Shown in pieces: positions 2,734-61,565 of a stretch of DNA of 64,000 nucleotides. The stretch spans positions 3,454 to 67,453 of the forward strand of contig SVQQ01000003.1 in NCBI GenBank assembly GCA_015065265.1, read 5' to 3'. Positions within the stretch are counted from its first letter, which is position 1. Each line of letters begins with the position of its first letter. Under the pieces are notes generated by a model that did not search any database, was not told the DNA's origin, and was given only the letters and a program-made list of their open reading frames with translations. Source of the DNA: Oscillospiraceae bacterium. Lineage in GTDB: Bacteria; Bacillota; Clostridia; Oscillospirales; SIG627. A program made the position numbers and the translations under genes.

Positions 2734-4368
2734 ATGCCCATTACAGAGATTTTACAGAAGAATGCCGACCTTTATCCCAACGACGTAAGTCTCATTGAGA
2801 TAAACCCCAAGTTCGAAAAAGAACGTACCTCTTGGCGCGAATATTCTCTAATTGAGACAAATTCAAGAGAGGTTTATAAAAAGCAGATAACCTGGCAGGA
2901 CTTCAACTGTCGTTCTAACCGCTTTGCAAACCTACTCCTGTCAAGAGGAATAAAAAAAGGGGACAAGGTTGCAATTCTTCTTATGAACTGCCTTGAATGG
3001 CTTCCCGTATATTTCGGAGCCCTTAAATCAGGCGCTATGGCAGTACCTTTAAACTACCGCTATACCGCAGATGAGATTAAGTATTGCCTTGAACTTGCCG
3101 ACGCCGACGTCCTTGTCTTCGGACCTGAATTTATCGGACGAGTTGAAGAGATTTGCACAAAGGTAAAACGTGTGAAAACTTGGCTCTACGTGGGCGGGGA
3201 TTGCCCCACCTTTGCCGAAAGTTACGAGGAACTGGTAGGCTATTGCTCGTCTAAATCACCCGCCATCAAACTCACCGACGACGACGAGGCGGCAATCTAC
3301 TTTTCATCAGGTACAACAGGCTTCCCCAAAGCCATAATACATAAACACAGAAGCCTTATGCACTCCGCCCTTACCGAGAATAATCACCATTCACAGACGA
3401 AAGACGACATCTTCCTGTGTATTCCGCCCCTCTACCATACGGGTGCCAAGATGCACTGGTTCGGCAGTTTCCTTGTAGGTGCAAAATCGGTACTCTTAAA
3501 CGGTATTAAACCCGAATGGATAATGAAGGTCGCAAGTGAAGAGAAGTGCTCTATCGTGTGGTTACTCGTGCCCTGGGCACAGGATATTCTGGATGCCATC
3601 GAGAGAGGGGATATCAAACTTGAAGAATACGACCTTACAAGTTGGCGCCTTATGCACATCGGCGCACAACCTGTACCCCCAAGTCTTATAAAGCGTTGGA
3701 AGAAGTATTTCCCGAACCACGCCTACGACACCAACTACGGACTTTCCGAGTCCATAGGCCCTGGCTGTGTACACCTCGGCGTTGAAAATGAACATAAAGT
3801 CGGCGCTATCGGTAAAGCAGGTTACGGTTGGGAAACTATGATAGTTGACGAAAATAAGAACCCTGTAAAGAGGGGAGAAGTCGGGGAACTTGCAGTAAAA
3901 GGCCCAGGCGTTATGACCGCTTACTATAAAGACGAAAAAGCCACCGCCGAAGTGCTTCGTGACGGTTGGCTCTTTACAGGAGATATGGCAGAGGAAGACG
4001 AGGACGGCTTTATCTGGCTGGTTGACCGCAAGAAAGACGTCATAATTTCAGGCGGTGAAAATCTGTACCCCGTTCAGATTGAAGACTTCTTACGTAAAAA
4101 CGATAAGATTTCCGACGTAGCAGTTATCGGACTTCCCGATGCAAGACTTGGAGAAATAGCCGCCGCTATAATCCAAGTCAAAGAGGGACAGACCTTGACA
4201 GAAGAAGAGGTTGAAGAGTTCTGTATGGACCTTCCCCGATACAAGAGACCTCATAAGGTAATCTTCGCAGACGTACCCCGTAACCCAACAGGTAAAATAG
4301 AAAAGCCCAAACTTCGTAAAATTTACTGTGGCGAAAGCGTTGTGGCTCAACAAAACGAAATAAAGTAA
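2734..4368 (+). CDS. acyl-CoA synthetase (AMP-forming, class I adenylate-forming enzyme)
   Basis: YFSSGTTGFPK P-loop, YGLSE, TGD, DRKKD and GKIEK motifs. Confidence 0.92.
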   Translation: MPITEILQKNADLYPNDVSLIEINPKFEKERTSWREYSLIETNSREVYKKQITWQDFNCRSNRFANLLLSRGIKKGDKVAILLMNCLEWLPVYFGALKSGAMAVPLNYRYTADEIKYCLELADADVLVFGPEFIGRVEEICTKVKRVKTWLYVGGDCPTFAESYEELVGYCSSKSPAIKLTDDDEAAIYFSSGTTGFPKAIIHKHRSLMHSALTENNHHSQTKDDIFLCIPPLYHTGAKMHWFGSFLVGAKSVLLNGIKPEWIMKVASEEKCSIVWLLVPWAQDILDAIERGDIKLEEYDLTSWRLMHIGAQPVPPSLIKRWKKYFPNHAYDTNYGLSESIGPGCVHLGVENEHKVGAIGKAGYGWETMIVDENKNPVKRGEVGELAVKGPGVMTAYYKDEKATAEVLRDGWLFTGDMAEEDEDGFIWLVDRKKDVIISGGENLYPVQIEDFLRKNDKISDVAVIGLPDARLGEIAAAIIQVKEGQTLTEEEVEEFCMDLPRYKRPHKVIFADVPRNPTGKIEKPKLRKIYCGESVVAQQNEIK

Positions 4369-4393: not shown

Positions 4394-6136
4394 ATGAAAA
4401 AGTTATTACTGGGTAACGCCGCAGTTGCCCGTGGCGCCTATGAAGCAGGAGTTAACGTCGTTGCTTCCTATCCAGGCACCCCAAGTACCGAAATTACAGA
4501 AGAAATAGTAAAGTTTGAAGAAATCTACGCCGAATGGTCACCTAACGAAAAGGTTGCCGCCGAAGTTGCAATCGGAGCATCTATTGCAGGTGGCAGAGCC
4601 ATGAGTTGTATGAAACACGTAGGACTCAACGTTATGGCAGACCCTGTCTTCACCGTTAGTTATACGGGAGTTAACGGTGGACTCGTCTTCTGCGTTGCAG
4701 ACGACCCCGGTATGCACTCTTCCCAGAACGAACAGGACTCAAGACACTACGCCAAGGCGTCGAAGATTACAATGCTCGAGCCTTCCGACTCAAAAGAGTG
4801 CCGTGACTTTACCCGCCTTGCTTTCGACCTTTCCGAAAAATTTGATACCCCCGTATTCATCCGCCTTTCCACAAGAGTTTCCCACTCTCAAAGCCTTGTG
4901 GAACTTGAAGAGAGAAAATTAGTTCCCGTAAAGGACTATGAGAAGAATATCGGAAAGTACGTTATGATGCCCGCAAACGCCATAAAGAGACACGTAACCG
5001 TTGAAGAACGCATTAACGCCCTTCGTGAGTTTGCCGAAGTAAGTGACCTTAATACAGTTGAAAATAACGGTTCAAAAATTGGCGTAATTACATCAGGTAT
5101 CACATATATGTACGCGAAAGAAGCACTGGAAGATAAGGTTGACTACCTTAAACTCGGTATGGTTTACCCCCTTCCCGAAAAGAAGATTGTGGATTTTGCG
5201 AAGAATTACGATAAGGTTTTTGTTATCGAAGAACTTGACCCCGTAATCGAAGACCACGCGAAAGCCCTCGGCGTTGAAGTTATCGGTAAAGAGGTGTTCA
5301 CACTTCTTGGCGAATATACCCCCGCTATGATTAAAAAGGCAGTACTTTCAGCCTCTGCCCCCGAAACAATTACCGTAAACGAAAATATCCCTGTCCGTCC
5401 CCCCGTTATGTGCGCAGGTTGCCCACACCGTGGCACCTTCTACGTACTTAAAAAACTCGGACTCGTCGTGTCGGGTGACATCGGTTGTTATACTCTGGGC
5501 GCTACAATGCCCTTGCAGTCGGTAGATACTACAATCTGTATGGGCGCATCCGTTTCAGCCGCACACGGTATGGCAAAAGCAAGAGGCAAGGAATTCAATA
5601 AGAAACTCGTCTCGGTTATAGGGGATTCCACCTTTATGCACTCGGGTATCACAGGACTTGTTGATATCGTTTATAATAAAGGCGCAAACACCGTAATCAT
5701 TCTCGATAACTCTATCACAGGTATGACAGGCCATCAGGACAACCCCACCACAGGCTATACTATCAGAGGTGAAGAGACAAAACAGGTTAACCTCATCACC
5801 CTTTGTAAAGCGGTAGGCGTTGAAAGAGTTGTGGTTGCCGACCCCTTCGACGTAAAACACTTTGAAGAAGTAGTCAAAGCCGAAGTTGAAGCAGACGAAC
5901 CCTCTGTAATTATCGCACAACGCCCCTGCGCACTTTTGAAGAGCGTTAAATATACAGGCGTATGTCAGATTAACGATAAATGTCGCAACTGTAAAATGTG
6001 TATGAAACTCGGTTGCCCCGCCATCACCCTTCGTGACGGTAAGGTAGTAATCGACCCCACCCAGTGTAACGGTTGCGGACTCTGTGTTAACGTTTGCCCG
6101 TTCTCTGCTATCGAAAAGAACGACGAAAGGAGATAA
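4394..6136 (+). CDS. iorA: indolepyruvate:ferredoxin oxidoreductase alpha subunit
   Basis: YPGTPSTE, NEKVA, CAGCPHR, GDIGCY and GDSTF TPP motifs, plus a C-terminal 2x[4Fe-4S] ferredoxin domain. Confidence 0.95.
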   Translation: MKKLLLGNAAVARGAYEAGVNVVASYPGTPSTEITEEIVKFEEIYAEWSPNEKVAAEVAIGASIAGGRAMSCMKHVGLNVMADPVFTVSYTGVNGGLVFCVADDPGMHSSQNEQDSRHYAKASKITMLEPSDSKECRDFTRLAFDLSEKFDTPVFIRLSTRVSHSQSLVELEERKLVPVKDYEKNIGKYVMMPANAIKRHVTVEERINALREFAEVSDLNTVENNGSKIGVITSGITYMYAKEALEDKVDYLKLGMVYPLPEKKIVDFAKNYDKVFVIEELDPVIEDHAKALGVEVIGKEVFTLLGEYTPAMIKKAVLSASAPETITVNENIPVRPPVMCAGCPHRGTFYVLKKLGLVVSGDIGCYTLGATMPLQSVDTTICMGASVSAAHGMAKARGKEFNKKLVSVIGDSTFMHSGITGLVDIVYNKGANTVIILDNSITGMTGHQDNPTTGYTIRGEETKQVNLITLCKAVGVERVVVADPFDVKHFEEVVKAEVEADEPSVIIAQRPCALLKSVKYTGVCQINDKCRNCKMCMKLGCPAITLRDGKVVIDPTQCNGCGLCVNVCPFSAIEKNDERR

Positions 6137-40575: not shown

Positions 40576-40651
40576 GGGGGTTTAGCTCAGCTGGGAGAGC
40601 ATCTGCCTTACAAGCAGAGGGTCACAGGTTCGAGCCCTGTAGTCCCCACCA
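40576..40651 (+). tRNA. tRNA-Val (anticodon TAC)
   Basis: 76-nt cloverleaf with acceptor GGGGGTT/AGTCCCC, anticodon loop CTTACAA, TTCGA T-loop and encoded CCA. Confidence 0.97.
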
Positions 40652-40655
40652 AAAC

Positions 40656-40686
40656 AAAAAGGAACACCGAAGGGTGTTCCTTTTTT
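40656..40686 (+). terminator. tRNA terminator (copy 1)
   Basis: AAAAAGGAACACC-GAAG-GGTGTTCCTTTTT. Confidence 0.9.
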
Positions 40687-40843
40687 GTTTTGGTATAGAA
40701 TAGAAGAGAGGAGTTTTGTATCGTATACAAAAGCCCTTTTCCTTTACAAGAGCAAGAAAAATAGTAAAAATTTATTGCAAAAACATTTGAATTATGATAC
40801 AATATTTTATATGTATTTATGTGTTATTATGGGTGGTGAAAAT

Positions 40844-42070
40844 ATGGCAAAGACTAAAATAACAAATTATTTTCAAAAAATATTAGAAAAGTCAATGAAA
40901 TATTTGAAAGAAACCTTTTCCGATGATGAAATTAATGATTTAATACACCAGTGTCAACATTTAAATCAATTAAAAAAACATGATGAAATAGTATCCAAAT
41001 GGACAGAAATATATATATCAAATGTCAAAAGAAAATATCAAAAGGAACACGAGTATGATGATGATATAGCTTCATTTGTTGAACACAATCAACCTGAAAA
41101 AGTTAAAGTGATATGGGGTGATTGTCTAAACGTATTAAAATCATTAAAAAGCGAATCGGTTCATTTAATGGTTACCTCACCTCCATACTATAACGCGAGA
41201 GAGTACTCTCATTGGGATGACTTAAAAAAATACTTAGAGGATATGCGAGCAATTATAAAAGAGGCCTATAGAGTTCTTGATAATCACAGAGTTTTTGTGT
41301 GGAATGTAGGAGATATTTTCGATAACGATAATTTATTTACAAAATCAACATGGGGGAAAAGAAGGATCCCTTTAGGAGCATATTTTATTTCAATTTTTGA
41401 AGAAGAAGGTTTTACTTTTGTTGATGATTATATTTGGGATAAAGGAGAAGTACAATCTCAAAGGCACAAAAACGGAAATAAGCCCTATCCTTTTTATCAA
41501 TATCCAATGAATTGTTATGAACACATTCTTATTTTTCATAAACACAGAACTGATTACACAAGATATCCTTGTCCTGTTTGTGGATGTCTACAAGTAAATG
41601 GAAATGCATATAGCGAAATAGGTCATAAAAGTTGGGAATGCAAGAATCAAGAATGTTTTGAAAGAAGTGAAGCAAATAGAGGTAAGCGTTTTTCTGTTAA
41701 ATCTATACTTACACAAAGTCGTCAAAGTAATGAATTTGAAATTGAAGAAGATTTTATAAAAAAATGGCGGAGGGATGTTATAAAAATATCTCCGGTAATA
41801 AAGATTAATTCTAAAGGGGAAAATACATTAGGACATACTGCCCCATTCCCAGAAGAAATTCCTGAAATGGCAATAAAGTTCTTCTCATATCCTGGAGAAA
41901 TTGTAATGGATCCTTTTGGAGGAAGCATGACAACTCCAATTGTCGCGTCCAAGTTAAATAGAAATGGAGTAGGAGTAGAATTAAACAAAAATATGTTTGA
42001 AGATAGTATAAGAAAAAATATTACTAATAAACTCGGAATTGATAAAATGGAGGAATTTGAATATGAGTAA
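40844..42070 (+). CDS. site-specific DNA methyltransferase (beta-class N4/N6, SPPY motif)
   Basis: WGDCL, VTSPPYY (motif IV) preceding DPFGGS (motif I), HTAPFP and a CPVCGC..CKNQEC insert. ATG at 40844 after GGTGGTGA. Confidence 0.9.
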   Translation: MAKTKITNYFQKILEKSMKYLKETFSDDEINDLIHQCQHLNQLKKHDEIVSKWTEIYISNVKRKYQKEHEYDDDIASFVEHNQPEKVKVIWGDCLNVLKSLKSESVHLMVTSPPYYNAREYSHWDDLKKYLEDMRAIIKEAYRVLDNHRVFVWNVGDIFDNDNLFTKSTWGKRRIPLGAYFISIFEEEGFTFVDDYIWDKGEVQSQRHKNGNKPYPFYQYPMNCYEHILIFHKHRTDYTRYPCPVCGCLQVNGNAYSEIGHKSWECKNQECFERSEANRGKRFSVKSILTQSRQSNEFEIEEDFIKKWRRDVIKISPVIKINSKGENTLGHTAPFPEEIPEMAIKFFSYPGEIVMDPFGGSMTTPIVASKLNRNGVGVELNKNMFEDSIRKNITNKLGIDKMEEFEYE

Positions 42071-42710
42071 TTTTTCTGCCGATAGCATAGAAGAAAAAAA
42101 GAAATTAGTTATTGGATTATATGGTGAAATGCATTTGTCAATGCATCTTCATGAATTAGGGTGGCAGGTACATCGTGCATATATTGACGAAGGAATAGAT
42201 TTTACTATCACAAAATATTGGTGCCCTAAATGTAAAAAATATAGCAATCAATGGATTAGAAAAAGCAAATGGAAAACATCAACAGCAAAATGTGTTACTA
42301 ATTTATGCGAACATTGTAAAGAAACTGAGCTCAAGGTGATTTCAAGATATTTGCAAGTAAAGACATCAGAAGGAAAAGAAGTTACCGGCGATGATACTTG
42401 TAGAGATTTTAGTTTTCATCCCAAAATAAGATATGATATGGGCGATGATGTTTTTTATGTGTGGATTGCAGTTTTTAGTGATGATAAGGGAGAAAAACAA
42501 TGCTATTATTATATTTTTAACACAAAAGATGTAACCAAGTTTGATAATATAAATATTGATACATATCAAATAACAGACAACCAAAAAACAACTTTAAGAA
42601 TCAGGAAAGTTGACGGTGCGGTTATAAACAAAGGAAAAATATATGATTACAGTTGTTTTAACAAAAAATTCTTCTGCGATTTTAGTTGTCTGGAGCTAGA
42701 ACGAAAATAA
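42063..42710 (+). CDS. putative type II restriction endonuclease (PD-(D/E)xK-like, QxK variant)
   Basis: GLYGE..., DEGIDF and YLQVKTS core with a CPKC..CEHC insert. Overlaps the MTase stop codon. Confidence 0.65.
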   Translation: MSNFSADSIEEKKKLVIGLYGEMHLSMHLHELGWQVHRAYIDEGIDFTITKYWCPKCKKYSNQWIRKSKWKTSTAKCVTNLCEHCKETELKVISRYLQVKTSEGKEVTGDDTCRDFSFHPKIRYDMGDDVFYVWIAVFSDDKGEKQCYYYIFNTKDVTKFDNINIDTYQITDNQKTTLRIRKVDGAVINKGKIYDYSCFNKKFFCDFSCLELERK

Positions 42711-42780
42711 GATCGATGTAGGTGTACTTTTTTAACTTTTTACCTCGATTCTATTTCGTTTAGTTGTTCTTTAGCAAAAT

Positions 42781-42811
42781 AAAAAGGAACACCGAAAGGT
42801 GTTCCTTTTTT
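42781..42811 (+). terminator. terminator (copy 2, near-identical to the tRNA terminator)
   Basis: AAAAAGGAACACC-GAAA-GGTGTTCCTTTTT. Confidence 0.9.
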
Positions 42812-42981
42812 ATCCAATCCGAAGGATTGGTATGTAATCGCCGTAAGGCGTATGTAATCACGCGTTAGCGTGAATGTTATCACCGCAGGTGTATTTTCAT
42901 CGGATTGATTACATACATTTTCTTTGGAAAATGATTACATTCCGACTTCGTCGTATTACATACAAGGCTCCGCCTTGATTT
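42812..42981. repeat. multi-hairpin palindromic element A
   Basis: Three TATGTAATC-like units each followed by a short hairpin, mirrored by three GATTACAT(AC)-like units with hairpins. Ends CATACAAGGCTCCGCCTTGATTT. Confidence 0.8.
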
Positions 42982-43052
42982 GTTTTTAGTTGCTATGCCT
43001 GAGGAGAGAGCAGACCGAAGGTATGCGTCGAGCCCTGTAGTCCCCACCAACA

Positions 43053-43091
43053 AAAAACGCACTTTTGTCTACCGACAAAGGTGCGTTTTTT
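43053..43091 (+). terminator. terminator after the att copy
   Basis: AAAAAACGCACTTTTGTC-TACC-GACAAAGGTGCGTTTTTT. Confidence 0.85.
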
Positions 43092-43295
43092 GAATGATGT
43101 TTGCCTTCGGCAAATGATGTTGGCTTCGCCAATGATGACGGCTGCGCCTATTGATGCGCGGCTTCGCCACATTTTGGGGCAAACATCGCATCATTGCGAC
43201 CAACGGGAGCAACATCGTTTTGAGCATAGCGAAAACATCATATCGCCGTAAGGCGATGCATCATTTTCAAAGCATACAAGGCTCCGCCTTGATTT
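43092..43295. repeat. multi-hairpin palindromic element B
   Basis: AATGATGTT-like units with hairpins (GCCTTCGGC, GGCTTCGCC), mirrored by AACATC(A/G)T-like units. Has the same 23-nt 3' end as element A. Confidence 0.8.
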
Positions 43296-43317
43296 ATTTC
43301 TGCTTTTGTGCTATATT
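43289..43317 (+). promoter_or_regulatory. sigmaA promoter of the MATE gene, with its -35 inside element B
   Basis: TTGATT (43289-43294)-17-TATATT (43312-43317) with a TGn extension. Confidence 0.65.
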
Positions 43318-43350: not shown

Positions 43351-44715
43351 TTGAAACTCTTTGTAAATGATAAAAAATTCTATAAAACCGTATTACTTAT
43401 CGCAATTCCGATAGCACTTCAAGGACTGATTACCACAGGCGTCAATATGATGGACACCATAATGGTTGGTAAAGTAGGGGAGACACAACTCTCCGCTGTA
43501 TCCCTTGCCAATCAGTTTATAAATATATTCCACATTTTCTGTATGGGTATCGGTATGGGCGCCTCTGTTCTCGTGGCAAGATACTACGGAATGAAAGACA
43601 ATATGGCACTTAAAAAAACCGTTGCCATTATGCTACGCCTTTGCCTTTTGATGTCCACCCTTTTTTGCGTTCTGACAATCTTCTTCCCCGAAGAAATTAT
43701 GAAAATTTACACCGTCGAAAAAGATATAATTGCCTATGGCGTACGATATCTGAAATACTCGGTTATAACCTACTATCTTTTAGGATTATCCCTTACCTGT
43801 ACCATTGTTTTAAGAAACGTCGGGCAGGTAAAAATTCCCCTTTATACCTCTATTGCAGCCTTTTTTATAAACGTTCTTGCAAACTACGTTTTTATTTTTG
43901 GAAAACTCGGCGCACCAAAAATGGACGTTGCAGGTGCCGCAATAGGTACGCTTATTGCCCGAATTTTTGAATTCTCTGCAATATGCGGATACCTGTTCTT
44001 TAAGGACAAGGAAATCGGTTTCAGAATTAAACACCTGTTTATGAAAGTAGGAAACTTCTGGAAAGAGTACATCAGAGTCAGTATCCCCGTCCTTGTCAGT
44101 GACGGAATACTTGCTTTTGGTAATAACTCTGTGGCAATGGTTATCGGAAGACTTGGCAAAAGTTTCGTTGCCGCAAACGCCGTTACCGCAGTGACCCAAC
44201 AACTCAGTTCCGTTATGATTCAAGGCTTTTCACAAGCAGGAGGTATTGTCACAGGCCACACTCTTGGTGAGGGTGACAAAGAGAAAGCCTACCGCCAAGG
44301 CTACGCCTTTTTACTCCTTGGGATTGTATTCGGCGCTATTTCCGCCCTTATAATTATGCTTATAAGCCCAATAATTATAAATGCCTACGACTTGTCTCAT
44401 GACACCCGAAAACTTGCAAGTGAACTTATGGTGTCAATCAGTATTATCGTCCTCTTCCAAGCCACAAACAGTATAATGACAAAAGGCGTTTTAAGAGGGG
44501 GCGGAGACACCAAAATACTTATGGCAGCCGATAATATCTTCCTTTGGGTTGCATCTATCCCCCTTGGAATTCTGGCAGGTTTCGTGTTCCACCTGTCTGC
44601 CTTCTGGATTTACTTCTTTTTAAAGATTGACCAAGTCTTAAAAGCCATCTGGTGCGTCATAAGACTTAAAAGCGGAAAATGGATAAAGAGAATAAAATCT
44701 TCCAGTGAAATGTAA
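43351..44715 (+). CDS. MATE family efflux transporter
   Basis: TTG start, about 12 TMs, DTIMVGKVG, AGAAIGT and LRGGGDT motifs. Confidence 0.92.
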   Translation: MKLFVNDKKFYKTVLLIAIPIALQGLITTGVNMMDTIMVGKVGETQLSAVSLANQFINIFHIFCMGIGMGASVLVARYYGMKDNMALKKTVAIMLRLCLLMSTLFCVLTIFFPEEIMKIYTVEKDIIAYGVRYLKYSVITYYLLGLSLTCTIVLRNVGQVKIPLYTSIAAFFINVLANYVFIFGKLGAPKMDVAGAAIGTLIARIFEFSAICGYLFFKDKEIGFRIKHLFMKVGNFWKEYIRVSIPVLVSDGILAFGNNSVAMVIGRLGKSFVAANAVTAVTQQLSSVMIQGFSQAGGIVTGHTLGEGDKEKAYRQGYAFLLLGIVFGAISALIIMLISPIIINAYDLSHDTRKLASELMVSISIIVLFQATNSIMTKGVLRGGGDTKILMAADNIFLWVASIPLGILAGFVFHLSAFWIYFFLKIDQVLKAIWCVIRLKSGKWIKRIKSSSEM

Positions 44716-61325: not shown

Positions 61326-61334
61326 TAGCTTAGT

Positions 61335-61497
61335 GATAGAGGTGCGACGATTATAAGTAATTTCCCACACGTGCAAAGGAGCAGGGTAATGAAAGGAATC
61401 GCCGCCGAAATCCGAAAAATATCCTTGAACTGTTTTTCGGGTTGGTTGACTTGTAGAATATGCAGTCGACTGTCACAATTATTTGTGGAGTGCTATC
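61335..61497 (+). promoter_or_regulatory. lysine riboswitch (L-box)
   Basis: GATAGAGGTGCG..AGTA..GAAAGG..CGCCGAA..CTGTCAC..GTGGAGTGCTATC; P1 is GATAG/CTATC. Confidence 0.9.
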
Positions 61498-61565
61498 TTT
61501 TGTGACTTTTTTGTCGTGGGTGATAGTACCCATGACATTTTTTATTTTTTTAGGAGGATTTTTCT

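Follow-up and report, generated by a model that had tools for sequence, protein, structure and literature searches.

Mirrored word-and-hairpin arrays behind tRNA terminators of gut Oscillospirales: relatives of the Gut-1 motif associated with PF05635 proteins

Gut-1 (RF01706) has stood in Rfam since 2010 as an orphan, with no organism, context or function. It was found by Weinberg et al. 2010 (PMC2864571) in sequence from human-gut metagenomes only, and was rated a likely RNA on covariation. Here we analyse two elements, A (42812-42981) and B (43093-43295), that lie within a 64,000-nt stretch (the window, to whose positions all coordinates refer unless a contig or locus is named) of contig SVQQ01000003.1 in assembly GCA_015065265.1, from an Oscillospiraceae bacterium. 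Each is a dyad array, i.e. a word of 7-9 nt alternates with mini-hairpins of variable sequence and is then mirrored, and each begins at the first base after a terminator hairpin (42781-42811 and 43051-43092 respectively). An earlier note on this DNA had described both features, and both are borne out. A and B belong to a repeat that is widespread in uncultured gut Clostridia (Oscillospirales) yet almost undescribed, and the arrays are accompanied by genes for four-helix-bundle proteins of the family PF05635 (TIGR02436, Avd-like). We found no functional description in the literature of these repeats, of Gut-1, or of PF05635 outside diversity-generating retroelements (DGRs).

The Gut-1 model (77 nt) has the consensus CAAUGAAAU-hairpin-GUGAAAU-hairpin-GUGAAAU-hairpin-UGAAAU. 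Judged on this consensus, Gut-1 is one arm of a sister type of array with the word UGAAAU. In Gut-1 a constant word of 6-7 nt alternates with three variable mini-hairpins, with loops of the CUUCG type; likewise A and B have at least three short hairpins of free sequence and one constant linker of 6-7 nt. The two are also found in the same genomes and at the same place, directly after a tRNA terminator. The linker is ATGTAAT in A and ATGATG in B rather than UGAAAU, and A has the opposite loop polarity. No family in Rfam reaches its gathering threshold in A or B, and the matches at E <= 10 are at chance level, save for a weak match of Gut-1 to the 5′ arm of B (43070-43143, 20.9 bits, E = 0.23; below the threshold of 50 bits). 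A B-type arm elsewhere scores 28.1 bits against the model, again below threshold, and A gives no Gut-1 match even at E <= 10. Gut-1 itself is present at or above its gathering score (50 bits) in 23 of 41 related genomes, with up to 37 matches per genome, and there is one match in the same genome as A and B (C9:15426-15496, 58.4 bits). The matches form convergent +/- pairs approximately 20 nt apart, indicating that they are the two arms of one element. Unlike Gut-1 as described, i.e. a single 77-nt arm classed as a small RNA of the human gut only, lacking context and function, the real unit is thus two-armed, and has a promoter and a protein partner; these, together with the tRNA-terminator context, are new here for Gut-1-like arrays. 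The earlier note knew of no named family with this layout. That statement needs amendment with respect to Gut-1, though A and B lie below its threshold. Gut-1 now gains an anatomy, as an arm of a two-armed element lying behind tRNA terminators, with an outward promoter and at least 13 word types, each with its own PF05635 clade.

The 23S rRNA intervening sequences of, for example, Leptospira and Coxiella carry an open reading frame (ORF) for a PF05635 / TIGR02436 four-helix-bundle protein. They share this protein family with the arrays, inverted arms around an ORF also occur in the genomes studied here, and stable-RNA operons are preferred in both cases. In contrast, A and B have no ORF, their arms abut and are made of repeated words and mini-hairpins instead of a simple stem, and they lie behind tRNA terminators, not inside 23S rRNA. 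Complete copies of the arrays have the ORF downstream or enclosed by the array, and none was seen inside rRNA. Avd of the DGRs belongs to the same fold family and is a small nucleic-acid-associated helper; unlike a DGR, the present genome has no reverse transcriptase and no pair of template and variable repeats.

Like the arrays, REP/BIME elements and REPINs are palindromes that lie outside genes in multiple copies, frequently at the 3′ end of a transcription unit, and they form mosaics with two orientations of the units. The sequence of a REP hairpin is conserved, together with a 5′ tetranucleotide, whereas here the stems are free (210 of 314 are distinct) and it is the linkers that are conserved; moreover there is no co-occurrence with the REP-associated transposase RAYT, and the association with tRNA terminators is strict. 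Correia elements of Neisseria are bacterial MITEs (miniature inverted-repeat transposable elements) with outward promoters. Elements of this type are, like the arrays, short, intergenic and multi-copy with inverted arms, and can give a promoter to the next gene. The arrays differ from them in showing no evident TA-type target duplication and no evident parent insertion sequence, and in having a word-and-hairpin periodicity and docking on tRNA terminators. Any short duplication of the T-run would be indistinguishable from the terminator tail, and the sole consistent partner is PF05635, not a known transposase. Finally, the attC and attI sites of integrons are set by shape more than by sequence and bound small variable cassettes at one anchor, as the arrays do, and strand-specific folding is plausible here. 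Unlike integron cassettes, those described below carry their own promoters, their anchor is a tRNA 3′ end plus terminator, and the arrays have repeated words and a four-helix-bundle partner. No IntI-type integrase lies beside the arrays in the loci read, integrases not having been searched for genome-wide.

Structure of A and B and the grammar of the family

Element A opens with the hairpin CCAATCC-GAA-GGATTGG (42814-42830). The words of its 5′ arm, TATGTAATC, GTATGTAATC and AATGTTATC, begin at 42831, 42851 and 42873, and behind each is a mini-hairpin (GCC-GTAA-GGC, CACGC-GTTA-GCGTG and CACC-GCA-GGTG in turn). Beyond the centre TATTTTCATCGGATTG (42892-42907) the mirrored words GATTACATAC, GATTACATTC and TATTACATAC begin at 42907, 42933 and 42954. 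The mini-hairpins of this 3′ arm are ATTTTC-TTTG-GAAAAT, CGAC-TTC-GTCG and the terminal AAGGC-TCC-GCCTT (42963-42977), after which comes GATTT. Five of the 12 ATGTAAT sites in the window fall within 130 nt in A, two on the plus strand and then three on the minus strand (Poisson p ~1e-8, corrected for the number of windows).

The 5′ arm of B has AATGATGTT twice, AATGATGAC and TATTGATGC, with hairpins carrying TTC or TGC loops. Its centre is GGGGCAAACATC (GGCAAACATC at 43178-43187), and the 3′ arm comprises CATCATT, AACATCGTT, AACATCATAT and ATGCATCATT with further hairpins, including one with a GTAA loop. The tail of B includes a word remnant, CATAC, and the hairpin CAAGGC-TCC-GCCTTG (43277-43291). 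A and B have in common the 14-mer ATCGCCGTAAGGCG (at 42837 and 43242), as previously noted, and an end of 27 nt with 96% identity (42959-42985 and 43273-43299).

Both elements were expected to fold into long rods studded with side hairpins. As RNA the folding z-scores are -4.8 for A and -3.9 for B, the range over both strands being -3.9 to -4.9, and with DNA parameters they are -7.3 and -4.65. None of 200 shuffles folds as well as A or B, and the two strands of each element fold about equally well. However, the 5′ arm and loop of the first hairpin are also complementary to the centre, and this alternative pairing covaries across copies, loop included (GAA-TTC, GCA-TGC and GATA-TATC), so that the simple rod is only one of two competing folds. 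A nested rod as the sole fold was rejected, given this covarying alternative and an innermost pair (ATGGCAT with ATTACAT) that is uncompensated.

The grammar of the family was read from 80 A-type copies. Inter-word segments were delimited by the words alone, avoiding selection for hairpins; MAFFT column alignment misaligned the variable hairpins, and word-anchored pair counts were used instead. There are 2-5 words per arm, most commonly three in the 5′ arm and three or four in the 3′ arm. The outer four positions of the segments pair in 84% of cases in the 5′ arm and 87% in the 3′ arm, compared with 53% and 45% when the partners are shuffled. This high level of pairing is found despite 210 of the 314 segments being distinct in sequence, while the words are near-identical within an arm and are kept across bacterial families; the hairpins are thus conserved as shape and the words as sequence. 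The innermost 5′ word has the variant ATGGCAT in 31 cases, with no compensating partner in the 3′ arm. Further types of word follow the same grammar, i.e. TATGGAATC/GATTCCATA, TATATCATC/GATGATATA, ATGAAG/CTTCAT, GTGATAT/ATATCAC, AGCTAAA, GCGATAT, TGAATTG and UGAAAU.

Some arrays are composite (L020:2205-2330 and 4262-4330; L033; L034), in that a truncated A- or B-type array runs into one with another word, such as GTGATAT/ATATCAC, pointing to types that have exchanged units or been inserted one within the other. AT-rich word dyads lacking mini-hairpins (ATTCATT/AATGAAT and ACTTCTTAC/GTAAGAAGT; C11:36375-36580, L132:2900-3000 and L096) are also seen in the array position, flanked by a tRNA terminator on one side and by a promoter and its four-helix-bundle or cargo gene on the other.

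Genomic context, outward promoter and protein partner

The exact 23-nt end of A and B, to which the earlier note drew attention, is present only twice in the genome, both times in the window. Exact and near-exact searches of the genome with this end and the 14-mer thus gave an impression of single-copy elements, which was overturned by searches at lower stringency; the end is shared but it is the bodies that are multi-copy. The same genome has at least seven more B-type copies, 64-82% identical, on C29, C39, C7 (two), C23 (two) and C49, and A- or B-type DNA is present in 27 of the 41 relatives, up to the level of the order and with up to ~20 matches per genome. The exact 19-mer that starts A-type elements, ATCCAATCCGAAGGATTGG, is found in >120 contigs of the GTDB representatives (one genome per species), nearly all of them from metagenome-assembled genomes (MAGs) of Acutalibacteraceae, Oscillospiraceae, Ruminococcaceae or 'Eubacteriales' from human and ruminant guts. 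Viral contigs have no match to the A pattern and three to the B pattern, and phage and plasmid collections have none; there is no sign in these collections that A or B is borne by phages or plasmids.

The copies share one context. Among the A-type copies with enough flanking sequence, 64 of 117 (55%) lie 31-41 nt behind an intact tRNA on the same strand, and these tRNAs comprise 24 anticodon classes. Most others lie behind either a 3′ fragment of a tRNA or a degenerate, conserved pseudo-3′ end, together with a terminator made of an A-run, stem and T-run. Docking after a T-run had been taken as targeting of terminators; more specifically it is behind a tRNA 3′ end or its remnant. The terminator ahead of B (term2) and B itself recur together, at 84-92% identity, behind different tRNA ends in a genome of another genus (G024) and one of another family (G036). 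Such identity of non-coding sequence across genera and families points to lateral spread of the block of terminator plus array.

Both elements end in the same hairpin followed by TTGATT, a -35 box, and the shared 23-nt end is a promoter module. In B the predicted promoter consists of TTGATT (43289-43294), a 17-nt spacer with TG, and the -10 box TATATT (43312-43317), 34 nt before the start codon of a gene for a MATE efflux protein; on this evidence the promoter borne by B would drive the MATE gene. B is not present upstream of MATE orthologues in 10 genomes of the genus. In A-type copies with a terminal TTGATT, a -10-like hexamer follows at 16-18 nt in 32 of 70, against 5 of 70 shuffles, and 26 of the 32 have a TG-extended -10 box. 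A itself has no good -10 box, because the remnant of another repeat, the T-unit (see below), comes next. Arrays of this kind give promoters to neighbouring genes, here the MATE gene, and break MAG assemblies, so that annotation is affected.

In a complete copy the first gene behind the array promoter encodes a PF05635 protein of matching type. Of 89 A-type copies, 16 have a PF05635 gene as the ORF next downstream; the remaining first ORFs are miscellaneous and include housekeeping genes. In the set of 41 relatives, with arrays scored from DNA matches to A/B or with the Gut-1 model, arrays and PF05635 are both present in 27, arrays alone in three, the gene alone in none and neither in 11 (Fisher, 1.2e-7). 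When the comparison is confined to 16 genomes, each from a different family, the corresponding numbers are 6, 2, 0 and 8 (p = 0.007). Viewed from the gene, a dyad word array is found within 420 nt upstream in 40 of ~86 PF05635 genes, with at least 13 types of word, and a same-strand tRNA 170-470 nt upstream in ~35 of the ~86; at least eight gathering-level Gut-1 matches lie 150-231 nt upstream of such a gene. The type of word follows the tree of the proteins, requiring 15 changes compared with 24-30 in 300 shuffles of the labels, and the same type recurs across genera and families on that tree. The closest solved chain for the protein is 2rld (E = 8.5e-18; five chains in the entry). PADLOC places it in no listed defence system.

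Within the present genome the multi-copy types have a matching gene, namely ATGATG (six copies), ATGAAG (three), ATTCAT-like (four) and ATATCAC (two). The matching gene for B is on contig C29, and B is an orphan copy. A is the only A-type copy in its genome and has no matching four-helix-bundle gene there; its relatives include elements with 87-88% identity in G018 and G028, that in G028 being followed by a PF05635 gene. A and B are probably non-autonomous ('orphan') members of the family. The earlier proposal of a non-autonomous family is sustained in so far as the elements are multi-copy, share one context after a T-run and include orphans, whereas the suggested link to mobility by HUH, RAYT or IS200-type transposases is unsupported.

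Two other candidates for a partner or setting were rejected. The Y1/RAYT family PF01797 is found in 15 of the 41 genomes and is absent from ten that are rich in the elements (G008-G011, G015, G017, G024, G027, G028 and G036); the partner that does co-occur is the PF05635 gene. A DGR setting for the Avd-like gene was discarded since reverse transcriptase does not co-occur with it; RVT_1 is absent from this genome and present in eight of the 41 relatives, and 21 of the 27 PF05635-positive relatives have no reverse transcriptase.

There is a second layout, in which inverted arrays of approximately four tandem 7-nt words, without intervening hairpins, flank the PF05635 gene in housekeeping neighbourhoods. 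It resembles the 23S rRNA intervening sequences that named PF05635. Examples are ATTGAAA x4 with TTTCAAT x4, and GCAGAGT x4 with ACTCTGC-like x4, each with one adjacent hairpin, and the layout is seen at L185, L179, L180, L181, L184, L187, L202, L204 and L206, and in the present genome at C23:17960-18400.

The arrays can recur in series behind one tRNA gene. At locus L084 the order is tRNA-Gln, terminator, a Gut-1-type array at gathering level, promoter, gene, a diverged tRNA-Gln 3′ end, a second terminator that equals the first at 34 of 35 nt, and an A-type array. Locus L132 has at least five such units behind tRNA-Asn, and in eight of 100 A-type copies a second copy of the terminator lies within 6 kb. 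Together with the restriction-modification (R-M) pair that is bracketed by two terminator copies in the window (below), this indicates stacks of small cassettes behind tRNA genes, the cassettes bearing promoters and being headed by the arrays. The regions downstream of tRNA genes in abundant gut and rumen Oscillospirales are in this sense organised cassette arrays.

Level of action and alternative explanations

The loops of the mini-hairpins have a marked polarity. In A-type copies the loops of the 5′ arm are of the form G..A (GTCA, GCAA, GAA, GTA, GTTA, GTAA) and those of the 3′ arm are their complements (TTC, TGC, TAC, TTGC, TTAC); in B-type copies the polarity is reversed. Over 300 hairpins keep the loop polarity. 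Since the two arms have unrelated stems, the complementarity of the loops is not a frozen inverted duplication, and it seems that the arms are read on opposite strands. Triloops make up 64% of the loops and almost all are closed by C-G; a C-GNA-G sequence is an unusually stable DNA mini-hairpin. Counts of G:T versus A:C in well-formed hairpins are 11 versus 4 in the 5′ arm and 5 versus 8 in the 3′ arm. An excess of G:T in a first count with a hairpin finder (23, with 10 A:C) was not confirmed by the word-anchored recount. Both arrays sit behind a strong terminator and ahead of a promoter. The complementary loops, the C-G triloops, the lack of a G-U excess, the position between terminator and promoter, and the folding of both strands with stronger z-scores for DNA favour a DNA-level site, and we therefore favour an array that would act at the level of DNA.

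Our suggestion, with a probability of about 45%, is of a cis-acting dyad DNA array, of which A and B are orphan copies and the words of which would be read by an Avd-like protein of matching type, such arrays being the heads of tRNA-anchored cassettes. Working as DNA, the array would offer 3-5 identical words per arm, which an oligomer of the four-helix-bundle protein of that type would contact sequence-specifically. The C-GNA-G mini-hairpins, which have no set sequence and are read from one strand in one arm and from the opposite strand in the other, would loop out the spacers and so bring the words into register. The protein-bound array would then mark the front end of a small cassette of accessory genes in the stack that follows a tRNA gene, and might serve insertion or rearrangement of the cassette, control of the outward promoter, or both. 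Within this reading, and as tentatively as the whole, A may have arrived together with the inserted R-M segment, and B may have been co-opted as the promoter of the MATE gene. PF05635, a large family uncharacterised outside retroelements, would gain a candidate ligand, and if the recognition holds, it becomes possible to test for a new, sequence-programmable class of protein-nucleic acid recognition or for a new way in which gene cassettes are mobilised.

A number of points weigh against this proposal. We infer the recognition of words by PF05635 proteins only indirectly, and both the co-occurrence and the match of word type to protein tree could be explained fully by linkage on the DNA and transfer together. 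By the strict criterion, an array is lacking at about half of the PF05635 genes. To our knowledge Avd of the DGRs is the only relative to have been studied, where it partners reverse transcriptase and RNA, and we know of no report of it as a sequence-specific DNA binder. Nor have a recombinase, a target-site duplication or a circular junction come to light. A dyad-wise test of strand gave 19 versus 9 (p = 0.09) and is underpowered, read-through from the very strong tRNA promoters could still transcribe the array, and Gut-1 was rated a likely RNA on covariation by Weinberg et al. (PMC2864571).

The last two points lead to the main rival, in which the arrays are a structured non-coding RNA, i.e. 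an extended, two-armed Gut-1 produced by read-through of the tRNA operon, whose rod or multi-hairpin fold would be bound by the Avd-like protein, in the way that Avd binds the RNA of retroelements, or cut by RNase III, the fate of the 23S rRNA intervening sequences with a gene of this family. Rfam shares the classification of Gut-1 as a likely RNA with covariation. The pairing of the mini-hairpins is kept while their sequence changes, the RNA folds far better than shuffled sequence, and the arrays have a constant place behind very strongly transcribed tRNA genes; PF05635, furthermore, is named after RNA-level intervening sequences, and the gene-flanking layout is present here. Nevertheless an array that comes after a strong terminator and before a promoter is contained in no predicted transcript. 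The mutually complementary loops of the arms, with the polarity of B reversed with respect to A, are unexplained by one RNA strand, C-G-closed triloops outnumber GNRA and UNCG tetraloops, and G-U is not in excess over A-C. Mere pairing requires neither identity of the words within an arm nor their conservation across families, and the ATGGCAT variant of the innermost 5′ word (31 cases) is uncompensated in the 3′ arm. We therefore consider an RNA role doubtful, and the structured-RNA alternative offered in the earlier note loses ground if taken as purely RNA, on account of the loop complementarity, the lack of a G-U excess and the place between terminator and promoter.

The other half of that suggestion, a classical non-autonomous transposon (a MITE or REP/BIME-like element) moved by a transposase encoded elsewhere (RAYT/IS200, IS110 or similar) with terminator hairpins as its target, would account for multiple copies with inverted arms in a constant context after terminators and for the spread between families at 84-92% identity, and outward promoters occur in other bacterial MITEs. 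We regard it as improbable. Y1 transposase or RAYT is missing from many element-rich genomes, and there is no transposase among the matches listed for the 89 first downstream ORFs (25 Pfam families, with 49 more families matched). No target-site duplication is evident, the number of units per arm varies from 2 to 5, and one transposase cannot explain at least 13 types of word that each track a clade of four-helix-bundle proteins. We give a similarly low weight to a purely regulatory operator array in double-stranded DNA, through which the four-helix-bundle protein or another factor would control the outward promoter, without mobility, orphan copies recruiting their neighbours into the regulon. 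Some 20 nt separate the last word from the -35 box downstream, the promoter is kept with the array, the four-helix-bundle gene is first behind it and a dyad layout is typical of operators. Yet the conserved mini-hairpins with their strand-specific loops, the constant docking on tRNA terminators and the place at cassette boundaries are left unexplained, and the 7-nt period of the words in the gene-flanking layout is off one face of B-DNA. It is very improbable that the arrays are a functionless by-product, made and homogenised by slippage or template switching at palindromic terminators and persisting neutrally. Template switching can reportedly create perfect hairpins (PMC8794818), the number of units is variable and decayed remnants are common; against this, the words are kept across families while the stems vary, loop polarity is kept in >300 hairpins, and co-occurrence with one protein family is strict. 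A bolder form of the cis-acting DNA array proposed above, which we think unlikely, is that the arrays, i.e. Gut-1 and its many sister types, and their type-matched Avd-like proteins constitute a system of gut Clostridia, so far unrecognised, that is mobile or captures cassettes. The folded-DNA array beside a mimic of a tRNA 3′ end and a terminator would be the site of attachment and assembly, through which small cassettes with promoters (carrying R-M systems, membrane proteins or acetyltransferases) come to be stacked behind tRNA genes. Such a system would parallel integrons in function, with unrelated parts and no classical integrase in cis.

Layout of the locus and neighbouring repeats

All features of the locus are on the plus strand except where stated. 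The array of insertions that includes A and B is anchored by tRNA-Val(TAC) (40576-40651; ARAGORN, and Rfam tRNA with 67.6 bits), which has its own promoter, TTGACA-17-TAATAT (promoter scan). Behind the tRNA lies the first copy of its terminator, term1 (AAAAAGGAACACC-GAAG-GGTGTTCCTTTTT, 40656-40686; terminator scan), a 97% repeat of the second copy at 42781-42811 (inverted repeat of 13 nt, 100%; terminator scan), which directly abuts A. The first copy is followed by the first ~25 nt of a split T-unit (40687-40711; no strand assigned), recognised by eye on alignment to the intact 188-bp T-units behind tRNA-Val of the congener G008. The R-M pair (40844-42710) lies between the two copies of term1. 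It comprises a type II N6/N4 methyltransferase (40844-42070; Pfam PF01555; PADLOC MTase_II, 1e-89) and an overlapping ORF of 223 aa (42039-42710), for which Pfam, PADLOC and further searches gave no family. The bracketing of the pair by two 97% identical copies of the tRNA-Val terminator (40656-42811) suggests a cassette inserted via recombination at the terminator; there is no recombinase gene within the bracketed segment.

Element A (42812-42981; word ATGTAAT / ATTACAT) is followed by the last ~47 nt of the split T-unit (42982-43028), ending in GCAGACCGAAGGTATGCGTCGAG. From the positions of the two parts of the T-unit (40687-40711 and 42982-43028), the R-M pair and A are enclosed by insertions made earlier behind tRNA-Val. 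Next come an exact 22-nt repeat of the tRNA-Val 3′ end (43029-43050) and term2, a terminator hairpin of 19 pairs (43051-43092) that also precedes B-type arrays after other tRNAs in G036 and G024. The body of B (43093-43266; word ATGATG / CATCAT), with its tail to 43295, leads through the A-shared tail and MATE promoter (43267-43317; promoter scan) to the MATE efflux gene (43351-44715; Pfam MatE). The segment of term2, B and the MATE gene is thus one that lies behind a displaced tRNA-Val end. Elsewhere in the window, a T-box leader (804-1041) and a lysine riboswitch (61329-61503) reach the gathering level in Rfam and are ordinary features.

The T-unit is a second repeat family of ~188 bp, with an internal terminator-like hairpin and the end GCAGACCGAAGGTATGCGTCGAG, and has no match to a family in Rfam. 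It is followed by a duplicate of the segment from T-loop to CCA of whichever tRNA is upstream, plus a terminator, and tandem copies are frequent. By appearance it is a miniature element with the conserved T-loop of tRNA as its site of integration. Intact tandem copies lie behind tRNA-Val in G008 (L169, reverse-complement 4432-4830) and behind other tRNAs in the present genome (C43:27571-29235, with four copies; C1:15463-15597; C23:18543-18669; C11:46175-46278).

In the cassette stacks, conserved pseudo-tRNA 3′ ends (GGTTCCATTTTGAGTGTCGGTCCCA, AGTTCTTTTTCGGACACGAATGACA, GTGCCATTAAGTTCAAAACACCCA and GGCATCTAAATTGTTCGTAACAGCCA) precede the terminator and array (C7:6600-7200; L049, L079, L105, L112, L103, L092, L096 and L134). 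They recur across genomes, and hence appear to belong to the cassettes. The stack at L132 contains, twice, a GC-rich insert of ~290 nt behind the tRNA-Asn terminator (L132:190-500 and 1440-1730), which ends with a 35-nt duplicate of the tRNA-Asn 3′ end. A conserved leader with a ribosome-binding site, AACCCAAGGCGGTGAT, is found either directly behind the element promoter or behind the stop codon of the four-helix-bundle gene (L030:2465, L031, C39:6440, C7:6880 and C7:7390; behind the stop codon in L103 and L138). The impression is of a module, the four-helix-bundle gene, that comes and goes ahead of the cargo genes by insertion or deletion.

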